From Oscillospiraceae bacterium (lineage in GTDB: Bacteria; Bacillota; Clostridia; Oscillospirales; CAG-272), in contig SVTO01000005.1 of the NCBI GenBank assembly GCA_015063745.1, positions 6,990 through 70,989 of the forward strand: a stretch of 64,000 nt of DNA, read 5' to 3'. The translations under genes were made by a program, and so were the position numbers. Below the pieces are notes generated by a model. That model was given only the letters and a program-made list of their open reading frames with translations, had not been told where the DNA came from and did no database searches. Numbering within the stretch: position 1 is the stretch's first letter; the number at the start of each line of letters is the position of its first letter. This document shows positions 5,026 to 59,061 of this stretch, one piece after another.

Positions 5026-6054
5026 TCAGACAAGTTCAGCAATATCGTAAATCAGCCGTTCGGTCTTTTCCCAGCCGAGGCAGGGGTCGGTGATGGATTT
5101 ACCGTAAACGTCTTCGCCGATCTTCTGTGCACCGTCTTCGATGTAACTTTCGATCATAAAGCCTTTGACCATCTTTTTGATATCCGCATTATGGCGGCAG
5201 CTGTAGAGGACTTCCTTGACGATACGGGGCTGTTCGAGGTGTTTTTTGCCGGAGTTGGCGTGGTTGGTATCGATAATGGCGGCGGGGTTGGCAAGACCGC
5301 TGGCTGCGTAGACTTCGCAGAGATTGAGCAGGTCTTCGAAGTGATAGTTGGGCATGGAATGGCCCTGTTTATTCACGTATCCGCGCATGATGGCATGGCT
5401 CAGGGGGTTGCCCTGGGAGTGCACTTCCCAGCCGCGGTAGATGAAGGTATGGGCGTGCTGGGCGGCTGTGATGGCGTTCATCATAACGGATAGATCGCCG
5501 CCGGTGGGGTTCTTCATACCAACGGGGATGGATAATCCGCTGGCGGTCAGACGGTGCTGCTGGTTTTCCACGGAGCGTGCACCGATGGCCACATAGGCCA
5601 GAATATCGTTCAGATAACGGTAGTTTTCCGGGTACAGCATTTCGTCGGCACAGGTGAAGCCGGTTTCCTTCAGCGCACGGATGTGCAGCTCACGGATGGT
5701 AACGATACCCTTGTACATATCCGGCTTTTCATTCGGGTCGGGCTGGTGCAGCATACCCTTGTAGCCGTCACCGGTGGTTCTGGGCTTGTTTGTGTAGATG
5801 CGGGGGATAATATATACCTTATCCGCAACCTTCTCCTGTACCTTCGCCAGGCGGTTGATATAGTCCAGTACGCTGTCTTCGTTGTCGGCGGAGCAGGGGC
5901 CGATGATCAGCAGAAACTTATCGGACGCACCGGTGAAAATGTCCGCAATCTCCTTCTCTCTGCGGGCAACGATCTGCTGCTGTTCCGTGGTCAGAGGGTA
6001 CATCTTCTTTACATCCATGGGGATGGGCAGTTTTCTTTCAAAAATCATATTCAT
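5026..6054 (-). CDS. aroF: 3-deoxy-7-phosphoheptulonate (DAHP) synthase, class I alpha
   Basis: 342 aa; ...LLIIGPCSADNE...IIPRIYTNKPRTT..GYKG...GARSVENQQHR...IIDTNHANSGK. Confidence 0.9.
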   Translation of the reverse strand: MNMIFERKLPIPMDVKKMYPLTTEQQQIVARREKEIADIFTGASDKFLLIIGPCSADNEDSVLDYINRLAKVQEKVADKVYIIPRIYTNKPRTTGDGYKGMLHQPDPNEKPDMYKGIVTIRELHIRALKETGFTCADEMLYPENYRYLNDILAYVAIGARSVENQQHRLTASGLSIPVGMKNPTGGDLSVMMNAITAAQHAHTFIYRGWEVHSQGNPLSHAIMRGYVNKQGHSMPNYHFEDLLNLCEVYAASGLANPAAIIDTNHANSGKKHLEQPRIVKEVLYSCRHNADIKKMVKGFMIESYIEDGAQKIGEDVYGKSITDPCLGWEKTERLIYDIAELV

Positions 6055-6075
6055 AAGGCAAATTCTCCCTTTCTT

Positions 6076-6933
6076 TTACATTTTATCAAACAGCGCCCGT
6101 CTTGCTGTGGACTGACGCATCATTTCCTGCATATCTTTCACATTTCCCTCGGCGACCATGTCTCTGAGAGAAATAAACTGCTTCAAAAACAAATCCATCT
6201 GCTGCAGAAGCGGCTCTCTGTTCTCCATGAACAGCTCGCTCCACATATATTCGTTGATCCGCGCAATACGGGTCAGATCCCGGAAGGAGTCCCCGGTGAA
6301 CTTTTCCATGTTCTCCTTGTCGTTGCAGGTCATCAGCGCAACCGCAATGCAGTGGGTCAGCTGGGACAGGAAGCCGATCATTTCGTCATGCTCTTTGGGG
6401 GACAATTCCGCCACATTGGTGAACCCCAGCAGGAGTCCCAGCTCCTTGCAGGTGGCGATCGCTTCCGGCGTATTTTTGGCCGTGGGGGTAACAATGTAGT
6501 TCGCCCCGATGAAAATCCGCGATGTGCTGTTCTCCACCCCGGAAACCTCACGACCCGCCATGGGATGGGCCGCAATAAACTCCACATCCTCTCGGAGCAT
6601 ATCCTGGATCGTGTATACAATGCTTCCCTTGACACCGGTTACGTCCGTGATCAGAGCGCCGGGCTTGAAATACTGCTGGTTGTCCCTGATCCATTCCACA
6701 AATACATGGGGATACAGCGCAAAAATCAGCAGATCCGCTTCCCCGATCATCTGTGGGTCAATCTCGGTAGTGCCTTCGTCGATCAGTCCCTTTTCCAGCG
6801 CATAATCAATGGAGCTTTGCTCCTTGGTGATCGCCGAAATGTGAAAACCGAACCGCTTCAGAGCCTCTGCGTAGCTGCCGCCCAGAAGACCCAGGCCCAC
6901 AATCATTACTTTTTTATTTACATCAATAATCAT
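6076..6933 (-). CDS. tyrA: prephenate dehydrogenase
   Basis: 285 aa; Rossmann motif VMIVGLGLLGGS; ...DVTGVK...AAHPMAGRE. Confidence 0.88.
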   Translation of the reverse strand: MIIDVNKKVMIVGLGLLGGSYAEALKRFGFHISAITKEQSSIDYALEKGLIDEGTTEIDPQMIGEADLLIFALYPHVFVEWIRDNQQYFKPGALITDVTGVKGSIVYTIQDMLREDVEFIAAHPMAGREVSGVENSTSRIFIGANYIVTPTAKNTPEAIATCKELGLLLGFTNVAELSPKEHDEMIGFLSQLTHCIAVALMTCNDKENMEKFTGDSFRDLTRIARINEYMWSELFMENREPLLQQMDLFLKQFISLRDMVAEGNVKDMQEMMRQSTARRALFDKM

Positions 6934-8138
6934 AGTATCTCAACCTTTCCGCCAAGGGATTCCATATCCGCGAAAAATCCCGGATAACTTTTGCGTACCG
7001 CTTCCGCACCGACGATTTCACCGCCGGTTTGGGAAAGCACCACCGCCATGGCCATAACGATGCGATGGTCGTTGTGCCCGTCGATCGGCATCTCGGGCGC
7101 GTGCAGAGTACATCCGCCGGGAACGGTGATCCGGTTCTCCTCACAGATCAGGGACACACCAACCCTGGCAAGCTCCTCTGCCATAGCCGCACCACGGTCG
7201 CTTTCCTTGGCCGCCAGCCGTGCCGTGTTCGTAAATACCGCACCGTTTTTCAGTGCCGCCAGCGCCATGAGTACCGGCCCCAGATCGGGACAGTCGGCCA
7301 TGTCGATCTCCGGCGTACCGGCACATAAAGCAGGGTAGTGTTCCTTATAAACCCGGTCTCCCTGCAGACTGTCCTCTGACAGCCCCGTAACCTGCACCTG
7401 ACCGCCGATACAGCCGAAGGCGTCCAGGAATGCGGCGTTGGAGTAATCGCCCTCCACAGGGCCGGAAATCGGCTGAAAACGCTGTCCGCCGGGAATACGG
7501 ATGTGATATTCGTCCGTGAATCCGGCATGAATACCGGCTTTGGCCAGCATGGACAGGGTCAGAAGCACGTAGGACCGGCTCTCAAAGGGCGGAAGGATCG
7601 TAATGGTGCTGCCCCCCTCCCGTGTGGCCAGGGCAAAGATCATGCCGCTGATGAACTGACTGCTGATATCCCCCCGGATCACATATTCCCCGGAGGTCAG
7701 ATGGCCGCATACCGTGATCTTGCCGGGCGTGCGGGTGAACACAAATCCCTTCTCCCGACATAAATCCTCGTAGATATCCATGGGCCTCTCCATCAGCCGC
7801 CCCTTGCCTGCGAAGGTCATTCTCCTGCCGCAGCACAAAGCCAGCGGAATCAGAAACCGTAGCGTGCTTCCGCTTTCTCTGCAGTCCAGAATCTCCCCGT
7901 CGCCGTGAAACATTCCCCTGCCGTCCACAGTGACCGTGCTGCCCTGTACGTCAAATTTCGCCCCGAAGGCGGACATACAGTCCATGGTGGCCAGAATATC
8001 CTCGGAATAATCCACGCCGCGCACAACGCTGATGCCGTCCGCCAGAGCCGCACAGATCAGATGCCGGTGTGCCATACTCTTGGACGGGGGAGCCGTGACG
8101 GTACCGTGCAGCAGGGAGGGTGTAATGCGTACATTCAT
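6930..8138 (-). CDS. aroA: 3-phosphoshikimate 1-carboxyvinyltransferase (EPSP synthase)
   Basis: 402 aa; ...APPSKSMAHRHLICAALA...; ...DHRIVMAMAV; ATGA start/stop overlap with tyrA. Confidence 0.92.
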   Translation of the reverse strand: MNVRITPSLLHGTVTAPPSKSMAHRHLICAALADGISVVRGVDYSEDILATMDCMSAFGAKFDVQGSTVTVDGRGMFHGDGEILDCRESGSTLRFLIPLALCCGRRMTFAGKGRLMERPMDIYEDLCREKGFVFTRTPGKITVCGHLTSGEYVIRGDISSQFISGMIFALATREGGSTITILPPFESRSYVLLTLSMLAKAGIHAGFTDEYHIRIPGGQRFQPISGPVEGDYSNAAFLDAFGCIGGQVQVTGLSEDSLQGDRVYKEHYPALCAGTPEIDMADCPDLGPVLMALAALKNGAVFTNTARLAAKESDRGAAMAEELARVGVSLICEENRITVPGGCTLHAPEMPIDGHNDHRIVMAMAVVLSQTGGEIVGAEAVRKSYPGFFADMESLGGKVEIL

Positions 8139-8575
8139 TTTTCCGCCTCCGGCATATTGGCCAGATAGTCAATGGCTTCCAGATAGCCGTCGGTGCCGTG
8201 ACCGGTGATGGTGTGTACACAGGCATAACGGACATAGCTGATCTGCCGGAAGTCCTCCCGCTCTTCCACCTTGGAAATGTGAACCTCCACGGTGGGAATG
8301 CCCACGGATTTCAGCGCATCCAGCAGAGCAATGCTGGTGTGGGTGTAAGCGCCGGGATTGATGACGATGCCGTCAAATTCCCCGTACGCCTGCTGGATCC
8401 GGTCCACAAGGTCGCCCTCGTGGTTGGACTGGTAGGTGTCCACCTGAATCCCGGCCGACGCGCAGTGATCCTGAATTTTGGCAATCAGGGTGGCGAAGGT
8501 TTCCCTTCCGTATATGGCAGGCTCCCGGATACCCAGCATATTGATGTTGGGACCGTTGATAACCAGAATTTTCAT
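8135..8575 (-). CDS. aroQ: type II 3-dehydroquinate dehydratase
   Basis: MKILVINGPNINMLGIREP.IYG......QSNHEG.LVD.IQ....DGIVINPGAYTHTSIAL.DA. Confidence 0.93.
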   Translation of the reverse strand: MKILVINGPNINMLGIREPAIYGRETFATLIAKIQDHCASAGIQVDTYQSNHEGDLVDRIQQAYGEFDGIVINPGAYTHTSIALLDALKSVGIPTVEVHISKVEEREDFRQISYVRYACVHTITGHGTDGYLEAIDYLANMPEAEK

Positions 8576-8590
8576 AGTCAGTACCTCGTA

Positions 8591-9826
8591 TTATTTGTGC
8601 ATTGCCCGGATCTTTTCCGCATTGATCACGGGATCTTCGTCCATGGGATGAATCACATCCGCCGTAGAACAGTACCGTCCGTACCGTTCCTCATACCGCT
8701 TCCGGATCGCATCGGCGGAATTGGCCGTGGGTCGGTCCGCTGTGGGCAGAAGCCTGTCCAGAGGACGGTCCAGGAAATAGATCTTCCCGTTCTGCCGCAG
8801 GGCATCCACGTTTGCATCCCGCAAAATCGCGCCGCCGCCGGTGGCAATAACCAGAGCGCTGTTTTTACCCACCTCGGCGATCACGTCACTTTCTCTGTCC
8901 CGGAATCCCTCTTCGCCGAACTGCGCAAAGATTTCCGGAATCTCCATACCGTACTTCTTCACGATCTCCGCATCCGTATCCACAAAGGTACGTCCGGTCA
9001 TTTCGGCCAGCAGTCTGCCAACCGTGGTCTTGCCGCTGGCGGGCATGCCGGTCAGAACGATGTTCTGCTTGGAAATGAAGATCTCTCTGTAAATATCATC
9101 AATAATGGTATCCCCATAGGTCTTGCCGGTGAACTTTTCGGCCGCAAATACCGCCTGTGCCACCAGCATATATAATCCGCCCACCGCCGGGATTCCCTTT
9201 GCCGCGGCATCCATCACCAGTCTTGAGGACAGGGGATTGTAAATCGCATCGAATACGCCGGACAGACCGGGGAAACAGCCGATGTCCACCGGTGCCGTGC
9301 CCGGATTCGGATACATCCCCACCGGTGTGGTGTTCAGAATCACACCCGCATCCCGGTGATCCCTGTAAGCCTGTTCATAGGTGATCACCCCGGGCTTCTC
9401 CGTCCGGCTGACCACGATGATCTCTCCGGCACCCATGGCTTCGGCCACCGCTTTGGCCGTACGGGATGTGCCGCCGGTGCCGAGAATGAGCACCTTCTTG
9501 CCGGTGAGGGAAATCCCCGCCCGGGTGATACAGCTTTTCATACCGAAGAAGTCTGTGTTGTAGCCGTAGAGCCTGCTGTCCCGGTTCACGATGGTGTTGA
9601 CAGCACCGATGGCCCGGGCGGTGTCGCTGATTTCGTACAGATAGGGAATCACATCCTGCTTGTAGGGGATGGTCACGTTGATGGCGGTGAATTCCTTCGC
9701 CGTCATGAAAGCATCCAGCTCATCCTTGGGGACTTCGCGGATGGTGTAGTCGTAGGTTTCGATTTTGTTGTGTATTTCTTTGGAAAAACTGTGGGAAAGA
9801 TGTTCCCCGATACAGCCGTATGTCAT
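8591..9826 (-). CDS. bifunctional shikimate dehydrogenase / shikimate kinase (AroE-AroK fusion)
   Basis: 411 aa. The N-terminal ~265 aa are AroE-like (..NVTIPYKQ.., YGYNTD, LGTGG). The C-terminal ~145 aa are AroK-like, with Walker A GMPASGKTTVG and ..IATGGG.. Confidence 0.88.
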   Translation of the reverse strand: MTYGCIGEHLSHSFSKEIHNKIETYDYTIREVPKDELDAFMTAKEFTAINVTIPYKQDVIPYLYEISDTARAIGAVNTIVNRDSRLYGYNTDFFGMKSCITRAGISLTGKKVLILGTGGTSRTAKAVAEAMGAGEIIVVSRTEKPGVITYEQAYRDHRDAGVILNTTPVGMYPNPGTAPVDIGCFPGLSGVFDAIYNPLSSRLVMDAAAKGIPAVGGLYMLVAQAVFAAEKFTGKTYGDTIIDDIYREIFISKQNIVLTGMPASGKTTVGRLLAEMTGRTFVDTDAEIVKKYGMEIPEIFAQFGEEGFRDRESDVIAEVGKNSALVIATGGGAILRDANVDALRQNGKIYFLDRPLDRLLPTADRPTANSADAIRKRYEERYGRYCSTADVIHPMDEDPVINAEKIRAMHK

Positions 9827-9855
9827 ACTGCAGACCTCCTTGTCTGATGCGGGAC

Positions 9856-10944
9856 TTATGCGAGAAAATCCGTGCCGTACCGCTGGGCCAGCAGATCACA
9901 GAGTGCAATGGCCACCGCGCTGTCCACAACCACTCTCGCCCGGTGAATGATGGCGGGGTCATGGCGTCCGGCGATCTGCAGAGGCGCATTTTCTTTTTTC
10001 GCAAAATTGACAGTATCCTGTTCCTTGTAAATGGAAGGCGTGGGCTTGACGGCGCAGGAGAACTGCAGGGGCATACCGTTTGTGATGCCGCCGTTAATGC
10101 CGCCGTTGTTGTTGGTGACGGTGACGATCTTCTCCCCGTCCATGCGGAAATTGTCGTTGGCTTCACTGCCGTACCGGTCGGCCATGGCAAAGCCCATACC
10201 GAACTGCACACCTTTTATGCCGGGAATACTGAAGAGAATATGGGAAAGTACGCTTTCCACGGTGTCGAACCATGGCTCTCCCACACCGGCAGGCATACCG
10301 ACCACAACCGTTTCCAGAATCCCTCCCACGCTGTCACCGGATTCGGCCGCCTGGGTGATCTTCATTTCCATTCCCGCCGCACGTTCGGTGTCCAGTACCG
10401 CAAAAGTCATTTCGTTCAGCGCGGCAATGTCTGCTTCCACATCCCCGAAAGGACGGTCGGAAACACCGGCACAGCGGCTGATGTGGGTACCGATCCGGAT
10501 CCCCTTGTTCTTCAGCGCGGCAATGGCGATGGCACCGGCCGCCACCAGTCCCGCCGTGATCCGTCCGCTGAAATGCCCGCCGCCCCGATAATCCTCGAAG
10601 CCGTGGTACTTGCAGTTGGCGGTGTAATCGGCGTGACCCGGACGGGCCAGAAACCGGGTGGCGCTGTAGTCCTTGCTCTTGGTGTTCTGATTGGGAATGG
10701 TGATCATAATGGGCGTGCCGGTGGTTTTGCCCTCGAATACACCGCTGGCGATCACGAACGGATCTTCTTCCTGCCGGGCGGTGGAGATTCTGCCCTTGGG
10801 CCGGCGCAGGGTCAGCTGATGGGCGATGAAGTCCTCATCCACCGGAATCCCGGGTGCCAGTCCGTCCAGTACCGCACCGATCTGTCCGCCGTGGCTTTCC
10901 CCGAATATCGTCAGAGAAACGCTCTGTCCGAAGGTGTTCTTCAT
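9856..10944 (-). CDS. aroC: chorismate synthase
   Basis: MKNTFGQSVSLTIFGESHGG.IG.VLDG.P.G...; start placed at the internal ATG that forms an ATGA overlap with the aroB stop (the ORF track extends to 11052). Confidence 0.92.
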   Translation of the reverse strand: MKNTFGQSVSLTIFGESHGGQIGAVLDGLAPGIPVDEDFIAHQLTLRRPKGRISTARQEEDPFVIASGVFEGKTTGTPIMITIPNQNTKSKDYSATRFLARPGHADYTANCKYHGFEDYRGGGHFSGRITAGLVAAGAIAIAALKNKGIRIGTHISRCAGVSDRPFGDVEADIAALNEMTFAVLDTERAAGMEMKITQAAESGDSVGGILETVVVGMPAGVGEPWFDTVESVLSHILFSIPGIKGVQFGMGFAMADRYGSEANDNFRMDGEKIVTVTNNNGGINGGITNGMPLQFSCAVKPTPSIYKEQDTVNFAKKENAPLQIAGRHDPAIIHRARVVVDSAVAIALCDLLAQRYGTDFLA

Positions 10945-11963
10945 ACCGTTTCGCCTCCTGCATATACTTTCAAGCGGTTTTCCAGTTCCGCATAGGTGAT
11001 CTTCGTCAGCCGGAACGTGCCGGGTTCCTCCACGGTGGTTACGGTAATACAATCCCCCTCGGATTTCTTATCGTGCACCATGGCTTCTGTAATCTTTTCC
11101 AGAGAGAAGTGATATTCCACCGGCAGACCGAGCTTTTCCAGAACGGGAATCAGCCGTTCTCTCACCCCGGGGGAACACATGGGAATCATCCCCAGGGCAA
11201 TACATTCGCCGTGGTAGTAGCCGTGAAGGCCCTCTTCGCTTTCGATACCGTGGCCGATGGTGTGCCCGAAGTTCAGAATCTTCCGCAGCCCCATCTCCCG
11301 TTCATCCTGCTCCACGACATTCTTTTTGATCATCAGGGAACGGGCGATCACGGTGTCAATATTTGCAATGGGATCTTCCTCTTCAAACAAACGGAACAGC
11401 TCCGCATCGGAGGTCAGGGCCATTTTCACCGCCTCTGCCAGACCCGCCGCAATCAGACGGGGAGAGAGGGTGGAAAGCACTTCCGGATCAATGATGACCT
11501 TTTTCGGCTGATAAAACGCACCGACAATATTCTTGATACCCCCCAGATTCACGGCAACCTTACCGCCGATGGAGGAGTCGATCTGCGCCAGCGTCGTCGT
11601 GGGGATGTTGTAGAAATCCACCCCGCGCATATAGGATGCGGCCACAAATCCGGCCAGATCCCCGACCACACCGCCGCCGACCGCCACAACGCAGTCCTTC
11701 CGGGTAAATCCCTTTTCCATCATCACCGTCAGCAGCTTTTCCCACTGGGCGGCGGACTTGCTGTCTTCGCCCTGCCGAACGGTAACGATCACGGGATTTT
11801 TGCACTGCGCCGCCACCGTTTCGGCATATACCGCAGGCACACCGTCGTCGGTGACGATCAGTACATTCCGCTCCAGAGGGATCATCTCTCCCGCTTTTGC
11901 CAGAGATCCCCTCTCGATCACTATATCATAACTGCGCTCACCCAGAGCAACGGATAAAATCAT
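10941..11963 (-). CDS. aroB: 3-dehydroquinate synthase
   Basis: ...VAVGGGVVGDLAGFVAASYMRG..F..IPTTLLAQ.DSSIGGK..; start at the ATG forming an ATGA overlap with the pheA stop. Confidence 0.92.
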   Translation of the reverse strand: MILSVALGERSYDIVIERGSLAKAGEMIPLERNVLIVTDDGVPAVYAETVAAQCKNPVIVTVRQGEDSKSAAQWEKLLTVMMEKGFTRKDCVVAVGGGVVGDLAGFVAASYMRGVDFYNIPTTTLAQIDSSIGGKVAVNLGGIKNIVGAFYQPKKVIIDPEVLSTLSPRLIAAGLAEAVKMALTSDAELFRLFEEEDPIANIDTVIARSLMIKKNVVEQDEREMGLRKILNFGHTIGHGIESEEGLHGYYHGECIALGMIPMCSPGVRERLIPVLEKLGLPVEYHFSLEKITEAMVHDKKSEGDCITVTTVEEPGTFRLTKITYAELENRLKVYAGGETV

Positions 11964-13081
11964 TCTTCTTCCCCTCTTTTCTTCTGCAGGCTGACCTCCA
12001 TGGTGTATCCGCCCACAACCTTCAGCATATCGCAATATTCATCCAGCGCCGCCAGCATCTTCTTACCGGCTTCGCTGTTCTCATCTCCTTCGGCTTCCAC
12101 ATAGAAGTAATACTGCCACGCCAGCTCCTTCAGCGGACGGCTGCGGAGGGCGCGCATATTGAATCCGTGTTCACCGATGATGCTGATGGCCTTCGCCAGC
12201 GCACCGGCTACGTTGTTTACCGTAAACAGCAGCAGGAATTTCTTGTCCCGGCCGCCGATGGAGTGATTGGGTACTCTGGAGAATACGGCAAAACGGGTGG
12301 TGTTTTCGCTGCTTTCGTTGATGTCGTGATCCAGTACCCGCAGACCGTACAGCTCCGCCGTCTCCGCACTGGCAATGGCCGCGGTGTGAATGTCTCCCTT
12401 TTCCGCAACGGACTGGGCGGCAATGGCGGTGTTTGTGGCCTGAATGACCTCGTATCCTCTGGCCTTGATGTATTCACCGCACTGCTTGAGAGCCTGGGGA
12501 TGGCTGATTACGGCGGTAATGGTGTCGGGGGTGGAACCGGGAACACCCAGCAGATTGTGCGTCACCGGCAGATCGTATACACCGTTGACATACAAAGATC
12601 CGCTGAACATCAGATCCATCACCTGTCCGACTTCCCCCGCATAGCTGTTTTCAATGGGCAGTACCGCACATTCACATTCCCCATCCACAACGGACTGATA
12701 GGCCGCCTGAAAATCCTCATAGGGAACACTCTGCCCGTCGGGGAAAATCCGGCCGGATGCAATGTGGGCAAACGCCCCTTCCACACCGCTGTACGCAATC
12801 TTGACCCCCTCGATCAGCCGTCTCTGGTAGGTCTTGGAAACCTCCATGGTGTGCTTCTGGAAGCTGATGTAGTAGGCTTTCAGTTCATCATCGTCCACAT
12901 ATTCCGCATTTTTGGCAAGAAGCAGCGCCTCTCTGCCGGCATCAAAAATGGGCAAGCCCCGTTCTTTCTTGTATTCCGCCACCATCCGCACCGCATCCAT
13001 GCGTCTGCAGAAAAGACCGGCGATCTCCCTGTCCACAGAATTGATAATCTCTCTCGCCTGTTCCAGCTTATCCATAACCAT
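11960..13081 (-). CDS. pheA: bifunctional chorismate mutase / prephenate dehydratase (P-protein)
   Basis: N-terminal CM helix (..IDREIAGLFCRRMD..), then a PDT domain (..AVLPIENS..G.V.., ..NTTRF..), then an ACT-like C-terminus. Start is ATG 13081 or 13075 (AGGA SD); the ORF track extends to 13141. Confidence 0.88.
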   Translation of the reverse strand: MVMDKLEQAREIINSVDREIAGLFCRRMDAVRMVAEYKKERGLPIFDAGREALLLAKNAEYVDDDELKAYYISFQKHTMEVSKTYQRRLIEGVKIAYSGVEGAFAHIASGRIFPDGQSVPYEDFQAAYQSVVDGECECAVLPIENSYAGEVGQVMDLMFSGSLYVNGVYDLPVTHNLLGVPGSTPDTITAVISHPQALKQCGEYIKARGYEVIQATNTAIAAQSVAEKGDIHTAAIASAETAELYGLRVLDHDINESSENTTRFAVFSRVPNHSIGGRDKKFLLLFTVNNVAGALAKAISIIGEHGFNMRALRSRPLKELAWQYYFYVEAEGDENSEAGKKMLAALDEYCDMLKVVGGYTMEVSLQKKRGEEE

Positions 13082-13102
13082 CCGTCCTTCAATCAAATAG
13101 AA

Positions 13103-13158
13103 TCCAAACAAAAAACCTCCACACGCCCATACATACAGCACGAAAAGCGGTGGAGGTT
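13103..13158 (-). terminator. intrinsic terminator (candidate attenuator) in the pheA leader
   Basis: Minus strand: AACCTCCACCGC-loop-GCG(T)GTGGAGGTT followed by TTTTTTGTTTGG; ends ~22 nt before the pheA ATG. Confidence 0.7.
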
Positions 13159-13176
13159 ACTATACACAAGTCCCTG

Positions 13177-13254
13177 TCAATCGGCCAGGCCCGGTACAAT
13201 GCAACGATCCATCGCGGTCATAAAGTAATAAAAATACGCATACAGCTTAAACAT
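13177..13254 (-). CDS. candidate aromatic-rich leader peptide (25 aa)
   Basis: Minus-strand ORF ATG TTT AAG CTG TAT GCG TAT TTT TAT TAC TTT ATG ... TGA = MFKLYAYFYYFMTAMDRCIVPGLAD. Seven of residues 2-11 are Phe/Tyr. GGAAAGGA lies upstream. The ORF sits between the promoter and the terminator. Confidence 0.5.
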   Translation of the reverse strand: MFKLYAYFYYFMTAMDRCIVPGLAD

Positions 13255-13294
13255 TATACAGCCCGTCCTTTCCCCGGAATTTCAATATGCATAT

Positions 13295-13323
13295 ATTATA
13301 TACCCATCACTCCCGGATGTCAA
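13295..13323 (-). promoter_or_regulatory. consensus sigma-A promoter of the aromatic operon
   Basis: Minus strand TTGACA-17 nt-TATAAT (perfect hexamers). Confidence 0.75.
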
Positions 13324-13403
13324 GAGGAAATTATGTATTTTTATAAACAAAACCGCAAAAAAATTCCAACCCTTCCTCCCCTGTCCACCCACCCAAACAA
13401 AAA

Positions 13404-13503
13404 AATCCCCCTCCCCTTTTTCAAAGTTTTTTGAAAAGAGGAAAGGGGTCCGGGGGAAGGAGAAAGACTTTTTTTCAAAAAAGTTTTTCTCCTTCCCCCG
13501 GGA
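13404..13503. repeat. palindromic intergenic element, type 1, copy B (inverted relative to copy A)
   Basis: Aligns along its length with the reverse complement of 4276-4371. Confidence 0.8.
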
Positions 13504-13525
13504 AAACTCAAAACTGCTACTAAAC

Positions 13526-14329
13526 TCAAAACTGATACTGCTGACCCGCAGTGAGGAAGGATTTGGTTTTTTCGCTTTGGGGGTTTTCGAAGACCTGTTC
13601 GGGGGTACCCATTTCTTCGATGACGCCGTCGGCCATATAGATGACTTTATCGGCGACACCTTTTGCGAAGGCCATTTCGTGGGTAACGACGATCATGGTA
13701 CGGTCATCGGATTTGAGGCCGCGGATGACCCGCAGAACTTCGCCGGTCAACTCCGGGTCGAGGGCGGAGGTAGGTTCATCGAAGCAGAGGATATCCGGGG
13801 AGAGGGCAAGCGCGCGGGCGATGGCCACACGCTGGCACTGACCGCCGGAGAGCTGACAGGGATAACTGTCCGCCTTATCGGTAAGTCCCACCGTAGCCAG
13901 CAACTCCATACCGTGACTGCGGATACCTTCCATCACACGGCTGCGCTGTTCTCTGCCGGCCTTTTCGGCTTTCAGACGTTCATTTTCCAATAACTCCGAA
14001 GCAAGGGTGATGTTCTTCAGAACCGTATACTGCGGGAACAGGTTGAAGGACTGGAACACCAGCCCGAAGTGCAGGCGGCGCATCCGGATTTCCTTATCCG
14101 ACAGCTTCTTGTGCTCCACGGCGTCAAAGAGGGTCTCGCCGTTCACGCGCATTTTCCCGCCGTCGGGGGTTTCCAGGAAATTCAGACAGCGCAGCAGGGT
14201 GGTTTTACCGCTGCCGGAAGAGCCGATGATAACCAGCACTTCGCCTTTCTCCAGGGTGAAATCAATGCCCTTCAGTACATTTACGTTTCCGAAACTTTTT
14301 GTAAAGTTTTCCACTTCCAGAATCGGCAT
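13526..14329 (-). CDS. amino acid ABC transporter ATP-binding protein
   Basis: Walker A GSSGSGKTT, signature LSGGQCQR, Walker B ILCFDEPTSALD; GlnQ-like. Confidence 0.93.
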   Translation of the reverse strand: MPILEVENFTKSFGNVNVLKGIDFTLEKGEVLVIIGSSGSGKTTLLRCLNFLETPDGGKMRVNGETLFDAVEHKKLSDKEIRMRRLHFGLVFQSFNLFPQYTVLKNITLASELLENERLKAEKAGREQRSRVMEGIRSHGMELLATVGLTDKADSYPCQLSGGQCQRVAIARALALSPDILCFDEPTSALDPELTGEVLRVIRGLKSDDRTMIVVTHEMAFAKGVADKVIYMADGVIEEMGTPEQVFENPQSEKTKSFLTAGQQYQF

Positions 14330-14341
14330 ATATATTCCCCC

Positions 14342-15076
14342 TTACACCTTGTAATAGGATAACTTGGCTTCCAGCTTGCCGAAAACCCATGTTACCAGCG
14401 CGTTGAATATCAGATAGAACAGACCCGTGTAGAAAAGCGGCCAGATCAGCTGCTTCAGAGACAGAATCTCATTGGCCATGAACAGAATTTCCATAACGGA
14501 AACGGTTCTGGCAAGCGCCGTATCCTTTACCAGCGTAATCGTTTCGTTGGCGATGGGCGGCAGAATGTTCTTGATTACCTGCATCAGAATGACCTTGAAG
14601 AAAATCTGGGATTTGGTCATGCCGAGCACCTGACCGGCTTCGTACTGACCCTTGGCAATGGATTCAATACCGCCGCGGTAGATCTCGCTGAAATAACAGG
14701 CGTAGTTGATGATAAACGCCACCAGCGCACCGCAGAAATAGGCCGCCGATACATTGCCGCCGAAAATCGCCCAGCGGGTCAGAGGCATCCGGAAGGCAAT
14801 ACCCGGCAGATATACGATGATCATCAGCTGCAGCAGCAGAGGCGTGCCGCGGATGATGTATACAAAACCCTTGACCAGATAACGCAGGGGCTTGATCTTG
14901 CTCATGGTACCGAAGGAAAAAACAAGACCCAGAGGCAGGGAGAAGATCAGCGTCAGGAAAAACAGCCCCAGCGTAAGCTTGAAGCCGTTGAGCAGCTGTA
15001 CCGTAACATACCACGCCTCGGCCCAGTCAATGTCCGTCAGCCAGGCAAAGGAAATTCTAAGCATCAAATTCATCAT
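14342..15076 (-). CDS. amino acid ABC transporter permease
   Basis: 244 aa polytopic; His/Glu/Gln/Arg-type permease signature ..ESIAKGQYEAGQVLGM...F..VI.PQ. Confidence 0.88.
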   Translation of the reverse strand: MMNLMLRISFAWLTDIDWAEAWYVTVQLLNGFKLTLGLFFLTLIFSLPLGLVFSFGTMSKIKPLRYLVKGFVYIIRGTPLLLQLMIIVYLPGIAFRMPLTRWAIFGGNVSAAYFCGALVAFIINYACYFSEIYRGGIESIAKGQYEAGQVLGMTKSQIFFKVILMQVIKNILPPIANETITLVKDTALARTVSVMEILFMANEILSLKQLIWPLFYTGLFYLIFNALVTWVFGKLEAKLSYYKV

Positions 15077-57538: not shown

Positions 57539-58048
57539 ATGATACTGATCATCATCCTGATTCTGGCCGCCGTAGGTCTGGATCAGTGGACGAAATATCT
57601 GGCTGTGGAGCACCTGATGGGGGAAGCCAGCTATCCCTTCTGGCAGGATGTACTGCACTTCACCTATGTGGAAAACCGCGGCGCCGCGTTCGGTATGCTG
57701 GCGGATCACCGCTGGGTGTTCATGATCTTTTCCGTAGCGGCCATCGGCATCCTGCTGTTCTGGCTGTGGAAGGAAAAGCCGCAGAGCATCTGGGTCCGTA
57801 TGGCGGCGGCCTTCATCGTGGGCGGCGGAATCGGCAATATGATCGACCGCGTACGGCTCGGCTATGTCGTGGACTTTATTGACGTACGGCTGATTGATTT
57901 TTACGTGTTCAATGTAGCGGACTCCTTTGTCTGCGTGGGATGTGCGCTGTTTCTGCTCTGGGCGGTGTTCTCGGAGATCGGTGCAAAGAAGAAACCCGCA
58001 GAAGCTGCCGCGGAAGCACCGGAAACGGCGGATGAGGAACAGCAATGA
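57539..58048 (+). CDS. lspA: lipoprotein signal peptidase II
   Basis: ..LDQWTK.L......F.YVEN.GAAFG.......GG.GN.IDR...G.VVDF.......FNVADS. Confidence 0.93.
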   Translation: MILIIILILAAVGLDQWTKYLAVEHLMGEASYPFWQDVLHFTYVENRGAAFGMLADHRWVFMIFSVAAIGILLFWLWKEKPQSIWVRMAAAFIVGGGIGNMIDRVRLGYVVDFIDVRLIDFYVFNVADSFVCVGCALFLLWAVFSEIGAKKKPAEAAAEAPETADEEQQ

Positions 58049-59061
58049 AGGATGTATTCGATTTGTCCGATGTGCTGACGGAAGAGGATCTGCCCGAAGA
58101 GGAAAACGCGGGCGAGACCCGGATCGACATTCTCCCCGAAGAAGCGGGAAACCGTGCCGATGCCGTTCTTGCCGCACGTACCGGCCTGTCCCGTTCCGCA
58201 ATCCAGCGGCATATGGAAGAAGGACAGCTTGTCCGACTGGTGCAGGGAAACCCGCATCCGGTTACAAAGAAGGATAAAACCGCCGCAGGTGAGGTCTACG
58301 TTCTGACCCTGCCCCCGCCGGCCGCATACGACGTGGCACCGGAGCCGGTTCCGCTGGATATCGTATACGAAGATGACCAGATCATCGTCCTGAACAAACC
58401 CCAGGGCATGGTCGTCCACCCCGCACCGGGACATACCGGCGGTACTCTGGTCAACGGACTGCTCTACCATTGCGGCGACAGCCTGTCCGGGATCGGCGGC
58501 GTACAGCGACCGGGGATCGTCCACCGGATCGACAGGGACACAAGCGGCTTACTGTGCGTGGCCAAAACCGATATGGCCCATACCCACCTGTCCGCCCAGC
58601 TCTCCGACCACAGTATGCACCGGGAATACCGGACCATCGTGATCGGCGGACTGCCGGAAGAAACGGGAACTGTGGACGCACCCATCGGCAGACACCCCAC
58701 CGACCGGAAGAAAATGGCGGTATTTGCGAAAAACCAGCCGGGCACATCCAGACACGCCGTATCCCACTACCGTGTACTGGAGCACCTGACGGGACACACC
58801 TACACGGAAGTGATTCTGGAAACGGGACGCACCCACCAGATCCGCGTACACATGGCGCACATCGGCCATCCGGTACTGGGAGATCCGGTATATGGCGGCG
58901 GAAACACACCGTTTGTACGGCGCAATCCGGCTCTGTTCCACGGACAGATGCTCCATGCGGCCGCATTGGTCCTGACCCACCCGGCTACGGGAGAAAAAAT
59001 GCGGTTCACCTGCCCTCTGCCGGATTATTTCGAAGCGGCGCTGGCGAAACTGCGGGAATGA
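58045..59061 (+). CDS. rluD: RluA-family 23S rRNA pseudouridine synthase (RluD-like)
   Basis: S4-like N-terminus; ..IVLNKP.GMVVHP.......VHRIDRDTSGLL..AK......YR......TGRTHQIRVHM..IGHP..GD..YG. Confidence 0.92.
   Translation: MKDVFDLSDVLTEEDLPEEENAGETRIDILPEEAGNRADAVLAARTGLSRSAIQRHMEEGQLVRLVQGNPHPVTKKDKTAAGEVYVLTLPPPAAYDVAPEPVPLDIVYEDDQIIVLNKPQGMVVHPAPGHTGGTLVNGLLYHCGDSLSGIGGVQRPGIVHRIDRDTSGLLCVAKTDMAHTHLSAQLSDHSMHREYRTIVIGGLPEETGTVDAPIGRHPTDRKKMAVFAKNQPGTSRHAVSHYRVLEHLTGHTYTEVILETGRTHQIRVHMAHIGHPVLGDPVYGGGNTPFVRRNPALFHGQMLHAAALVLTHPATGEKMRFTCPLPDYFEAALAKLRE

Follow-up and report, generated by a model that had tools for sequence, protein, structure and literature searches.

What controls the synthesis of phenylalanine and tyrosine is a question raised by a stretch of 64,000 nucleotides (nt) from an Oscillospiraceae bacterium (contig SVTO01000005.1 of assembly GCA_015063745.1), referred to here as the window, in which a biosynthetic operon headed by pheA is preceded by a promoter, a small open reading frame (ORF) crowded with Phe and Tyr codons, and an intrinsic terminator. 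In an initial annotation, made from the letters alone, this arrangement had been likened to attenuation of the pheL/trpL type. The computational checks proposed there, namely the comparison of orthologous leaders, the exclusion of a T-box and the folding of alternative structures, all favour an attenuator. On evidence that is computational throughout, the leader is very likely a ribosome-mediated (leader-peptide) transcription attenuator sensing the charging of tRNA-Phe and tRNA-Tyr.

A leader ORF rich in the codons of the operon products

The leader ORF of 25 codons reads on the minus strand as had been claimed (Table 1), and Phe or Tyr occupies seven of its codons 2-11. This density (7/10) exceeds that of every other small ORF in the window, 473 of which begin with ATG and span 10-60 codons; the runners-up have 6 and 5. 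Since the operon makes both Phe and Tyr, its content covering the entire common pathway and the two corresponding branches without trp genes, mixed Phe/Tyr sensor codons fit its products. The promoter described upstream of the ORF was recovered with a 12/12 match to TTGACA-17-TATAAT, and it is the sole match of that quality within 12000-14500.

Conservation of the leader among related loci

Related loci were collected by a PheA protein scan covering one genome per species. PheA relatives numbered at least 568, and the 80 best were taken (PheA identity 56-92%; designated by L numbers). They belong to metagenome-assembled genomes (MAGs) of rumen and gut Clostridia, labelled Clostridia, Oscillospiraceae, Acutalibacteraceae, Ruminococcus and others. 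The design of the window, called class A, is found at 23 of the 80 loci, a second and unrelated Phe/Tyr leader, called class B, at 18, and Phe/Tyr-rich small ORFs of other kinds at three (L017, L059, L060), so that 44 of the 80 loci have a Phe/Tyr leader of any sort upstream of aro/pheA. Among the other 36, about 18 have pheA right behind another gene and three come without upstream sequence. A T-box within the 3 kb upstream of pheA was seen at only two of the 80 loci. Throughout the roughly 600 kb of sampled DNA, the pair of RNA words that marks class A (see below) occurs only ahead of pheA and always with the Phe/Tyr run, the sole exception being a codon-less chance match on the other strand of L068.

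The small ORF, its reading frame, the Phe/Tyr run and the terminator are all kept in the orthologous leaders. In all 24 class A leaders, a promoter of 10-12/12 (TTGACA-16/17-TATAAT) lies 18-43 nt upstream of the leader ATG, a Shine-Dalgarno (SD)-like motif and an in-frame ATG stand 12-16 codons before the first of the two words, GCGAUGGAU, and a hairpin with a U-tract is present. Two codons, invariably, separate the last Phe codon from GCGAUGGAU. The eight codons before this spacer are TTT, TAT, TAC or TTC in 136 of 184 cases, and the run displays a T-[A/T]-[T/C] periodicity, with T at position 1 in 145 of the 184 codons, A or T at position 2 and T or C at position 3. Phe and Tyr change order from locus to locus and interchange at given positions; together with the triplet periodicity, this interchange argues for selection on the codons and not on an RNA word. 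Beyond 'AMD', the tripeptide encoded by GCGAUGGAU, the peptide varies in sequence and in length, its stop codon lying 0-15 codons further on, and the leader peptide is therefore unlikely, as judged from these sequences, to be a functional product itself.

Besides, the Phe codons of the class A leaders are TTT in 52 of 56 cases and TTC in 4, as compared with a TTT share of 62% in the pheA genes that follow these leaders and of 39% in the operon of the window (TTC 61%). This bias may reflect either a wobble-read codon that sharpens sensing or the avoidance of C in an unstructured run.

A predicted antiterminator and its overlap with the terminator

The word GCGAUGGAU, termed R2, is near-invariant at the nucleotide level in the 24 class A leaders. 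A second word, (A)UCCACCGCU, lies in the 5' arm of the terminator (R3), 41-70 nt downstream of the first, is equally conserved and is complementary to it save for a central A.C. The Ala codon of R2 is GCG in 22 of the 22 leaders having Ala at that place, while in the accompanying pheA genes only 27% of the Ala codons are GCG, which argues that the word is constrained as RNA. The conservation of 'AMD' is, as these sequences would have it, that of an RNA and not that of a peptide.

R2 and R3 are predicted from their sequences to pair as an antiterminator sharing a strand with the terminator. In a register-fixed alignment, 83.6% of the R2:R3 cells are paired, against 26-54% once the partner is slid by 1-3 columns, and three pairs are changed on both sides. 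Compensatory variants combine GCGAUUGAU with UCAACCGC in L057/64/78 (GCGAUUGAU with UCAACCGC) and GAGAUGGAU with UCCGUCUC in L007/66 (GAGAUGGAU with UCCGUCUC). The covariation score of the helix amounts to 0.112, a value reached by 0 of 500 shuffles (0.052±0.014). Independently of this, RNAalifold was given 18 full-length leaders in a plain MAFFT alignment and returned R2:R3 as the only consensus helix, unbroken in 18/18 and with two compensatory pairs. The pairing of GCGATGGA with TCCACCGC put forward by the initial annotation consequently stands, backed by the compensatory changes and by RNAalifold, but for one of its eight positions, the central A.C, which is a mismatch; this mismatch is unpaired in 19 of 21 distinct sequences.

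As regards the terminator, its presence was borne out, but the stem announced as 12 bp holds a one-base bulge; the gap between stop codon and stem is 18 nt rather than 17, and the U-tract lies 30 nt from the pheA ATG rather than about 22. In L011, L013, L030/32, L057 and L074, the terminator stem starts only at ...ACCGC, and the conserved AUCCA is therefore needed there only for pairing with R2. The whole leader fold has a z-score of -0.83, which is unremarkable, so that single-sequence stability is no evidence here.

The P1 helix and the simulated ribosome states

A further helix, P1, pairs the SD-to-AUG region of the leader with the segment just 3' of R2 (strands in Table 1) and thereby sequesters the ribosome-binding site of the leader ORF. 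Its mean duplex energy over the 24 leaders is -14.6 kcal/mol, versus -8.2 after shuffling. With one representative per lineage, own partners reach -14.0 kcal/mol versus -9.95±0.69 for swapped ones, and 0 of 20000 permutations were as good; this co-evolution is seen in spite of an identity of only 40% among the 23-mers of different lineages. The loop of P1 encloses R2, and the 3' strand of P1 is reused as the inner hairpin of the antiterminator, the two structures being therefore mutually exclusive in nested folds.

The RNA of the window was folded in several ribosome states. The free full-length RNA forms P1 and the terminator (-56.5 kcal/mol), and the free nascent RNA ending before the 3' arm forms P1 (-34.0 kcal/mol). 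When a 27-nt ribosome footprint is placed with Tyr5, Tyr7, Tyr9 or Phe11 in the A site, the extended antiterminator, made of R2:R3 and inner helices, appears at about -28 kcal/mol; with the footprint over the stop codon, no antiterminator forms. Of the 24 class A leaders, 21 adopt the antiterminator when the ribosome is set three codons ahead of the last Phe. Set on the last Phe itself, its footprint reaches into the first bases of R2, which is thereby weakened; this is consistent with the invariant two-codon spacer putting R2 just outside a ribosome stalled earlier. In the short ORFs of L057/64/78 the stop codon comes right after R2, so that a terminating ribosome sits on R2; in L013 and L030/32 it comes 9 nt before R3, and a ribosome terminating there would lie over the portion of R3 used by the antiterminator only. 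Computed results are thus available on which parts the leader has, on how they are conserved, on the pairing of R2 with R3 and on the co-evolution of the P1 strands.

Proposed mechanism

From these features we infer ribosome stalling, its timing with respect to RNA polymerase, an anti-antiterminator role of P1 and a response to Phe and Tyr, in a scheme where a strong constitutive promoter would be gated by the charging of tRNA-Phe and tRNA-Tyr. Transcription would begin near 13288, and a ribosome would then load onto the leader ORF. With plentiful Phe-tRNA and Tyr-tRNA, this ribosome would pass the Phe/Tyr codons, R2 and the following segment on its way to the stop codon. Being covered, R2 would be unable to hold the emerging R3 (UCCACCGC), which would pair with the 3' arm to form the terminator, and termination at the U-tract would release a leader RNA of about 180 nt. 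When either charged tRNA is scarce, the ribosome would stall, its A site occupied by a Tyr or Phe codon. Placed over the leader start region or just behind it, it would prevent P1 from forming. R2, which begins 10 nt from the last Phe codon, would stay just outside the stalled ribosome, and together with the following segment it would pair with the emerging R3 into the antiterminator. The terminator could then not nucleate, and RNA polymerase would read into pheA-aroB-aroC-aroEK-aroQ-aroA-tyrA-DAHP synthase. Finally, in an RNA devoid of ribosome, P1 would pair the ribosome-binding site with the segment 3' of R2, loop out R2, block late initiation and favour termination.

Points against the attenuator and competing explanations

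Several observations weigh against this scheme. In truncated transcripts, the antiterminator is already the nested minimum free energy structure in 17 of the 24 leaders without a ribosome and in 13 of the 24 with a ribosome at the stop codon, and in 20 of the 24 its stability exceeds that of the P1 state by 1-10 kcal/mol. The first leader codons mask R2 no better than shuffled controls do (probability of being unpaired 0.35 vs 0.40, p=0.15). Once the RNA is full-length, the terminator wins on thermodynamic grounds in nearly every simulated state, so that control must be kinetic, as is usual among attenuators. Since thermodynamics alone fail to separate the states in most orthologues, the OFF state would have to rest on kinetics or sterics, that is, on P1 forming first and on a moving ribosome. 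In addition, related sequence from gut metatranscriptomes consists, in three RNA runs, of fragmentary contigs at 2-8x, one of which spans the terminator into pheA (12933-13171) and another covers the leader (13194-13363); they are too shallow for transcript ends, terminated and read-through RNA are inseparable in them, and DNA carry-over is possible. The invariance of both 9-mers and of the A.C mismatch also exceeds what a simple attenuator needs and is not fully explained. We suspect a triple constraint on the words, by the reading frame, R2:R3 and the pairing of R3 with the terminator 3' arm, together with an antiterminator kept weaker than the terminator. Finally, Bacillota are counted among the organisms with runaway transcription, whose RNA polymerase leaves the ribosome behind (PMC13323073, PMC7858274); this is unfavourable to the synchrony of the two unless a pause exists.

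On both of the last points a more unusual reading can be given. These Clostridia may synchronise ribosome and RNA polymerase at the leader, for instance through a P1-dependent pause, and the antiterminator helix may at the same time be read by a second input (protein, tRNA or ligand), which would make the element a hybrid attenuator combining ribosome stalling with a trans-acting signal. Such an input may be reflected in the near-invariance of GCGAUGGAU and AUCCACCGCU and in the conserved A.C mismatch; we nevertheless consider this combination unlikely. If it were true, synchrony at this leader would be an exception to the phylum-level picture of runaway transcription in Bacillota.

The same invariance, kept across lineages with a PheA identity of only about 60% and going beyond helix maintenance, could be ascribed to a trans-acting factor (RNA-binding protein, uncharged tRNA or small ligand) that binds the two words and chooses between terminator and antiterminator, translation being incidental or auxiliary. 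The lack of a clean OFF state in purely thermodynamic models goes in that direction as well. Such a factor leaves unexplained, however, the SD and ATG, the fixed two-codon spacing and the T-[A/T]-[T/C] periodicity with its Phe/Tyr interchange, and also a second leader class that is unrelated and shares only the Phe/Tyr codon run; moreover, the variants of the words are compensatory, as a helix predicts. Known RNA regulators were also searched for. At gathering score, Rfam 15 returned nothing over the entire 64-kb window (no tRNA, rRNA, riboswitch or T-box), and at E<=10 none of its 4227 families matched inside the leader (13076-13323), Phe_leader (RF01859) and leu/phe-leader (RF01743) included, every match of the permissive scan of 12950-13560 falling on hairpins further upstream. 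An array of the TRAP type, for which about 9-11 (G/U)AG triplets spaced by 2-3 nt are expected, is absent from the 213-nt leader, which has two GAG/UAG triplets only. Control by a trans-acting factor is accordingly regarded as improbable.

That P1 sequesters the ribosome-binding site of the leader is a design also used in translational and stability control, and the metatranscriptome contigs are too shallow to reveal regulation. One could hence think of a constitutive leaky terminator with an upstream ORF affecting mRNA stability or downstream translation, P1 controlling leader translation or decay without any sensing of amino acids. This is very improbable in our view: the enrichment is specific to the two amino acids made by the operon, it is found in two independent designs and only upstream of aro/pheA in the 600 kb, the covarying antiterminator shares a strand with the terminator, and the ribosome-binding site of pheA lies outside every leader helix. 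A divergent, tRNA-sensing T-box leader would be in keeping with the frequency of T-boxes upstream of Firmicute amino-acid genes, with the two related loci having one within 3 kb upstream of pheA (a matter of context only) and with the ACCGC that the R3 word shares with the T-box consensus. The T-box model (RF00230), however, has no match over 12950-13560 either at gathering score or at E<=10, though the same tool detected the T-boxes of L017 and L023 at 99 and 112 bits; the transcript measures only about 180 nt up to the terminator, half of it translated ORF, and no fold contains a Stem I or specifier-like structure. The probability of a T-box is hence close to nil. As for an AT-rich small ORF and a terminator having met by chance, all that speaks for it is that small ORFs are abundant in general, and the rank of the leader ORF in Phe/Tyr density together with an anatomy that recurs, with covariation, in 23 orthologous loci leaves it next to no probability; it is refuted by conservation. 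The ribosome-mediated attenuator thus remains the preferred reading.

Class B and other Phe/Tyr leaders

The class B leaders (Table 1) encode a peptide of the form ..F[T/A]RFYAGF.., and several of their MAGs are labelled Ruminococcus. Their invariant RNA words are GCGGGCUUU and GUAACAGGUGCU (also written GCGGGCTTT and GTAACAGGTGCT), followed by a conserved terminator, AGCGGUUCUG...CAGAGCCGCU (also written AGCGGTTCTG...CAGAGCCGCT). Region 1 of this class seems to overlap the Phe/Tyr codons, as in classical trpL; folding in the same ribosome states as for class A produced no clean model.

Phe/Tyr-rich small ORFs of other designs, such as MEVMMGFNRFFYYFYFTCDCPSSVIPG and ..CCFANFFCYYYYYWFKSEKEYTA, were noticed in L017 (about 1.2 kb upstream of pheA), L059 (about 100 nt) and L060 (about 1.2 kb). 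Those of L017 and L060 sit ahead of the gene that precedes pheA, a position suggesting that the attenuator travels with the first gene of the operon.

Features of the locus and side observations

The features of the leader and operon are collected in Table 1. The operon ORFs after pheA lie on the same strand and are contiguous or overlapping; a single ORF at 8591-9826 of the minus strand comprises shikimate dehydrogenase (N- and C-terminal domains) and shikimate kinase, that is, an aroE-aroK fusion.

Table 1. Positions of the leader, operon and related-locus features (window coordinates unless a locus is named)
Feature	Position	Strand	Remarks
A+T tract	13352-13324		83% A+T; directly upstream of the -35 and abutting it
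Sigma-70-type promoter	13295..13323	-	-35 TTGACA 13323-13318, 17-nt spacer, -10 TATAAT 13300-13295; 12/12
Predicted transcription start	near 13288	-	
SD of leader ORF	13266..13270	-	AAGGA, 11 nt upstream of ATG
P1 5' strand	13251..13265	-	CGGGCUGUAUAAUGU; SD-AUG spacer, AUG and first base of codon 2
Leader ORF	13177..13254	-	25 codons and stop; ATG 13254, TGA 13179-13177; reads MFKLYAYFYYFMTAMDRCIVPGLAD
Phe2 codon	13251-13249	-	
Sensor codons Tyr5, Tyr7, Phe8, Tyr9, Tyr10, Phe11	13222..13242	-	TAT GCG TAT TTT TAT TAC TTT
R2	13207..13215	-	GCGAUGGAU; antiterminator 5' strand; codons Ala14-Met15-Asp16
P1 3' strand	13186..13202	-	GCAUUGUACCGGGCCUG; within the distal part of the leader ORF
R3	13147..13154	-	UCCACCGC; common to antiterminator (with R2) and terminator (with 3' arm)
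Intrinsic terminator	13106..13158	-	5' arm 13158-13147, 3' arm 13126-13114; hairpin 13158-13114, AACCTCCACCGC...GCGTGTGGAGGTT, -23.5 kcal/mol; U-tract TTTTTTGTTT 13115-13106
pheA SD	13090-13085	-	GAAGGA; outside terminator
pheA (chorismate mutase, prephenate dehydratase, ACT)	11960..13075	-	First regulated gene; ATG 13075; Pfam CM_2, PDT, ACT
aroB, aroC, aroE-aroK fusion, aroQ, aroA, tyrA (prephenate dehydrogenase), DAHP synthase	5026..12035	-	Rest of operon; Pfam matches
Class B leaders	~50-270 nt upstream of pheA		L027, L031, L035-L039, L041, L044, L049, L053-L055, L061, L067-L069, L071
T-box leaders	L017 530-784; L023 1634-1879		Well upstream of pheA

Upstream of the aro promoter ends an ABC-transporter operon, whose ATPase gene occupies 13526-14329 of the minus strand. 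Two strong tandem hairpins stand between this gene and the promoter (13407-13501, both strands): the one at 13501-13450 has a near-perfect 24-bp palindromic stem (-38.4 kcal/mol) and attracted many spurious miRNA-family matches in the permissive Rfam scan, and the one at 13448-13407 (-23.9 kcal/mol) is followed by a U-run. These hairpins are probably terminators insulating the aro promoter, which, given also the A+T tract at its -35, is predicted from the sequence to be insulated and is probably strong.

A scan of the window for codon runs in further candidate leader peptides gave a single suggestive match, a small ORF with tandem Trp codons at 58862-58800 of the minus strand (MCAMCTRIWWVRPVSRITSV, with a hairpin and T-run on the 3' side); it was rejected as a product of chance, since it lies inside an ORF of 338 amino acids on the plus strand (58045-59061). 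A metagenome scan with the two RNA words alone (GCGATGGAYN{31,60}TCCACCGCT) returned at least 120 contigs; the matches listed were all chance occurrences in coding DNA of GC-rich soil and water contigs, none of those listed having a Phe/Tyr run followed by a terminator hairpin and T-run, and the pattern was too permissive. Finally, a Gut-1 small RNA match was recorded in L019 (6669-6753, minus strand) with 50.4 bits, at threshold.

Significance and comparison with known systems

A Phe/Tyr leader peptide is the dominant arrangement upstream of aro/pheA in the sampled rumen and gut Clostridia (44/80, in two or more independent designs, versus two T-boxes). A description of this Clostridia leader was found neither in Rfam nor in the literature searched, whose coverage of subscription journals was incomplete. 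The mechanism would be a known one, and the sizeable conserved family of gut and rumen Clostridia, with its sister class B, would be a new one. It would constitute an unannotated cis-regulatory RNA family, absent from Rfam 15, usable to annotate many gut and rumen MAGs, and would point to the repeated adoption of leader-peptide attenuation in Bacillota, a phylum where such attenuators are thought rare. The leader might also serve as a compact natural reporter for transcription-translation coupling in these anaerobes and, if the proposed mechanism is true, would account for the way in which abundant gut commensals throttle their synthesis of aromatic amino acids.

Amino-acid-sensing leader peptides are textbook matter in Proteobacteria and are documented in Actinobacteria. 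Among Firmicutes, the Lactococcus leu/phe-leader (RF01743) is a known leader-peptide attenuator, to which the Clostridia leader has no Rfam match. Firmicutes are rather described as relying on T-boxes, TRAP and repressors (PMC1262725, PMC9413887), and classical attenuation has been called absent for their aminoacyl-tRNA synthetase genes (PMC1262725). The initial annotation had likewise noted that Firmicute aromatic operons are usually reported to use T-boxes or TRAP. Leader-peptide attenuation is not unprecedented in this phylum, His leader-peptide attenuators having been predicted in the B. cereus group, Peptostreptococcaceae and Erysipelotrichales (Ashniev et al. 2022, PMC9413887). These His attenuators display the same combination of leader peptide and terminator/antiterminator hairpins, were also recognised by comparative genomics and occur in lineages without the usual T-box or repressor; they differ in amino acid, operons and lineages, and the Clostridia Phe/Tyr family is larger in its sample (44/80) and comprises two structural classes.

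Among the closest parallels is the E. coli pheL-pheA leader (Phe_leader, RF01859; reviewed in PMC11802643), which has, as do trpL and hisL, a short ORF rich in end-product codons, a terminator before the first biosynthetic gene and an antiterminator sharing a terminator strand, and whose first regulated gene, pheA, is the same. The Clostridia leader nevertheless has no sequence or structure similarity to it (no Rfam match at E<=10), belongs to a host from Bacillota, mixes Phe and Tyr codons where pheL has Phe only, and would control the whole common pathway and tyrA where pheL controls pheA alone. It further departs from the pheL/trpL class in that its putative 'region 1' is its own SD/AUG region, engaged in P1, and not the regulatory codons.

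Outside Proteobacteria, the closest aromatic precedent comes from Corynebacterium glutamicum, in which the aroR leader, with the codons Phe-Tyr-Phe, precedes aroF and acts through ribosome stalling (Neshat et al. 2014, as related in PMC11802643). It is likewise a mixed Phe/Tyr leader on a shikimate-pathway operon, but it stems from Actinobacteria and has three aromatic codons versus 5-9 here, the comparison being one of descriptions and not of sequences. As that account has it, aroR responds to Phe and not to Tyr and is experimentally supported, whereas the Clostridia leader is a computational prediction. In Firmicutes themselves, ribosome-mediated attenuation is established for the sensing of antibiotics by B. 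subtilis, where the attenuators of bmrB-bmrCD (PMC4191407) and vmlR (PMC9226507) also rely on ribosome stalling on a leader ORF that turns off a terminator; there, the stall is provoked by an antibiotic and resistance genes are switched on, whereas in the Clostridia leader it would arise from the scarcity of charged tRNA and would act on biosynthetic genes.

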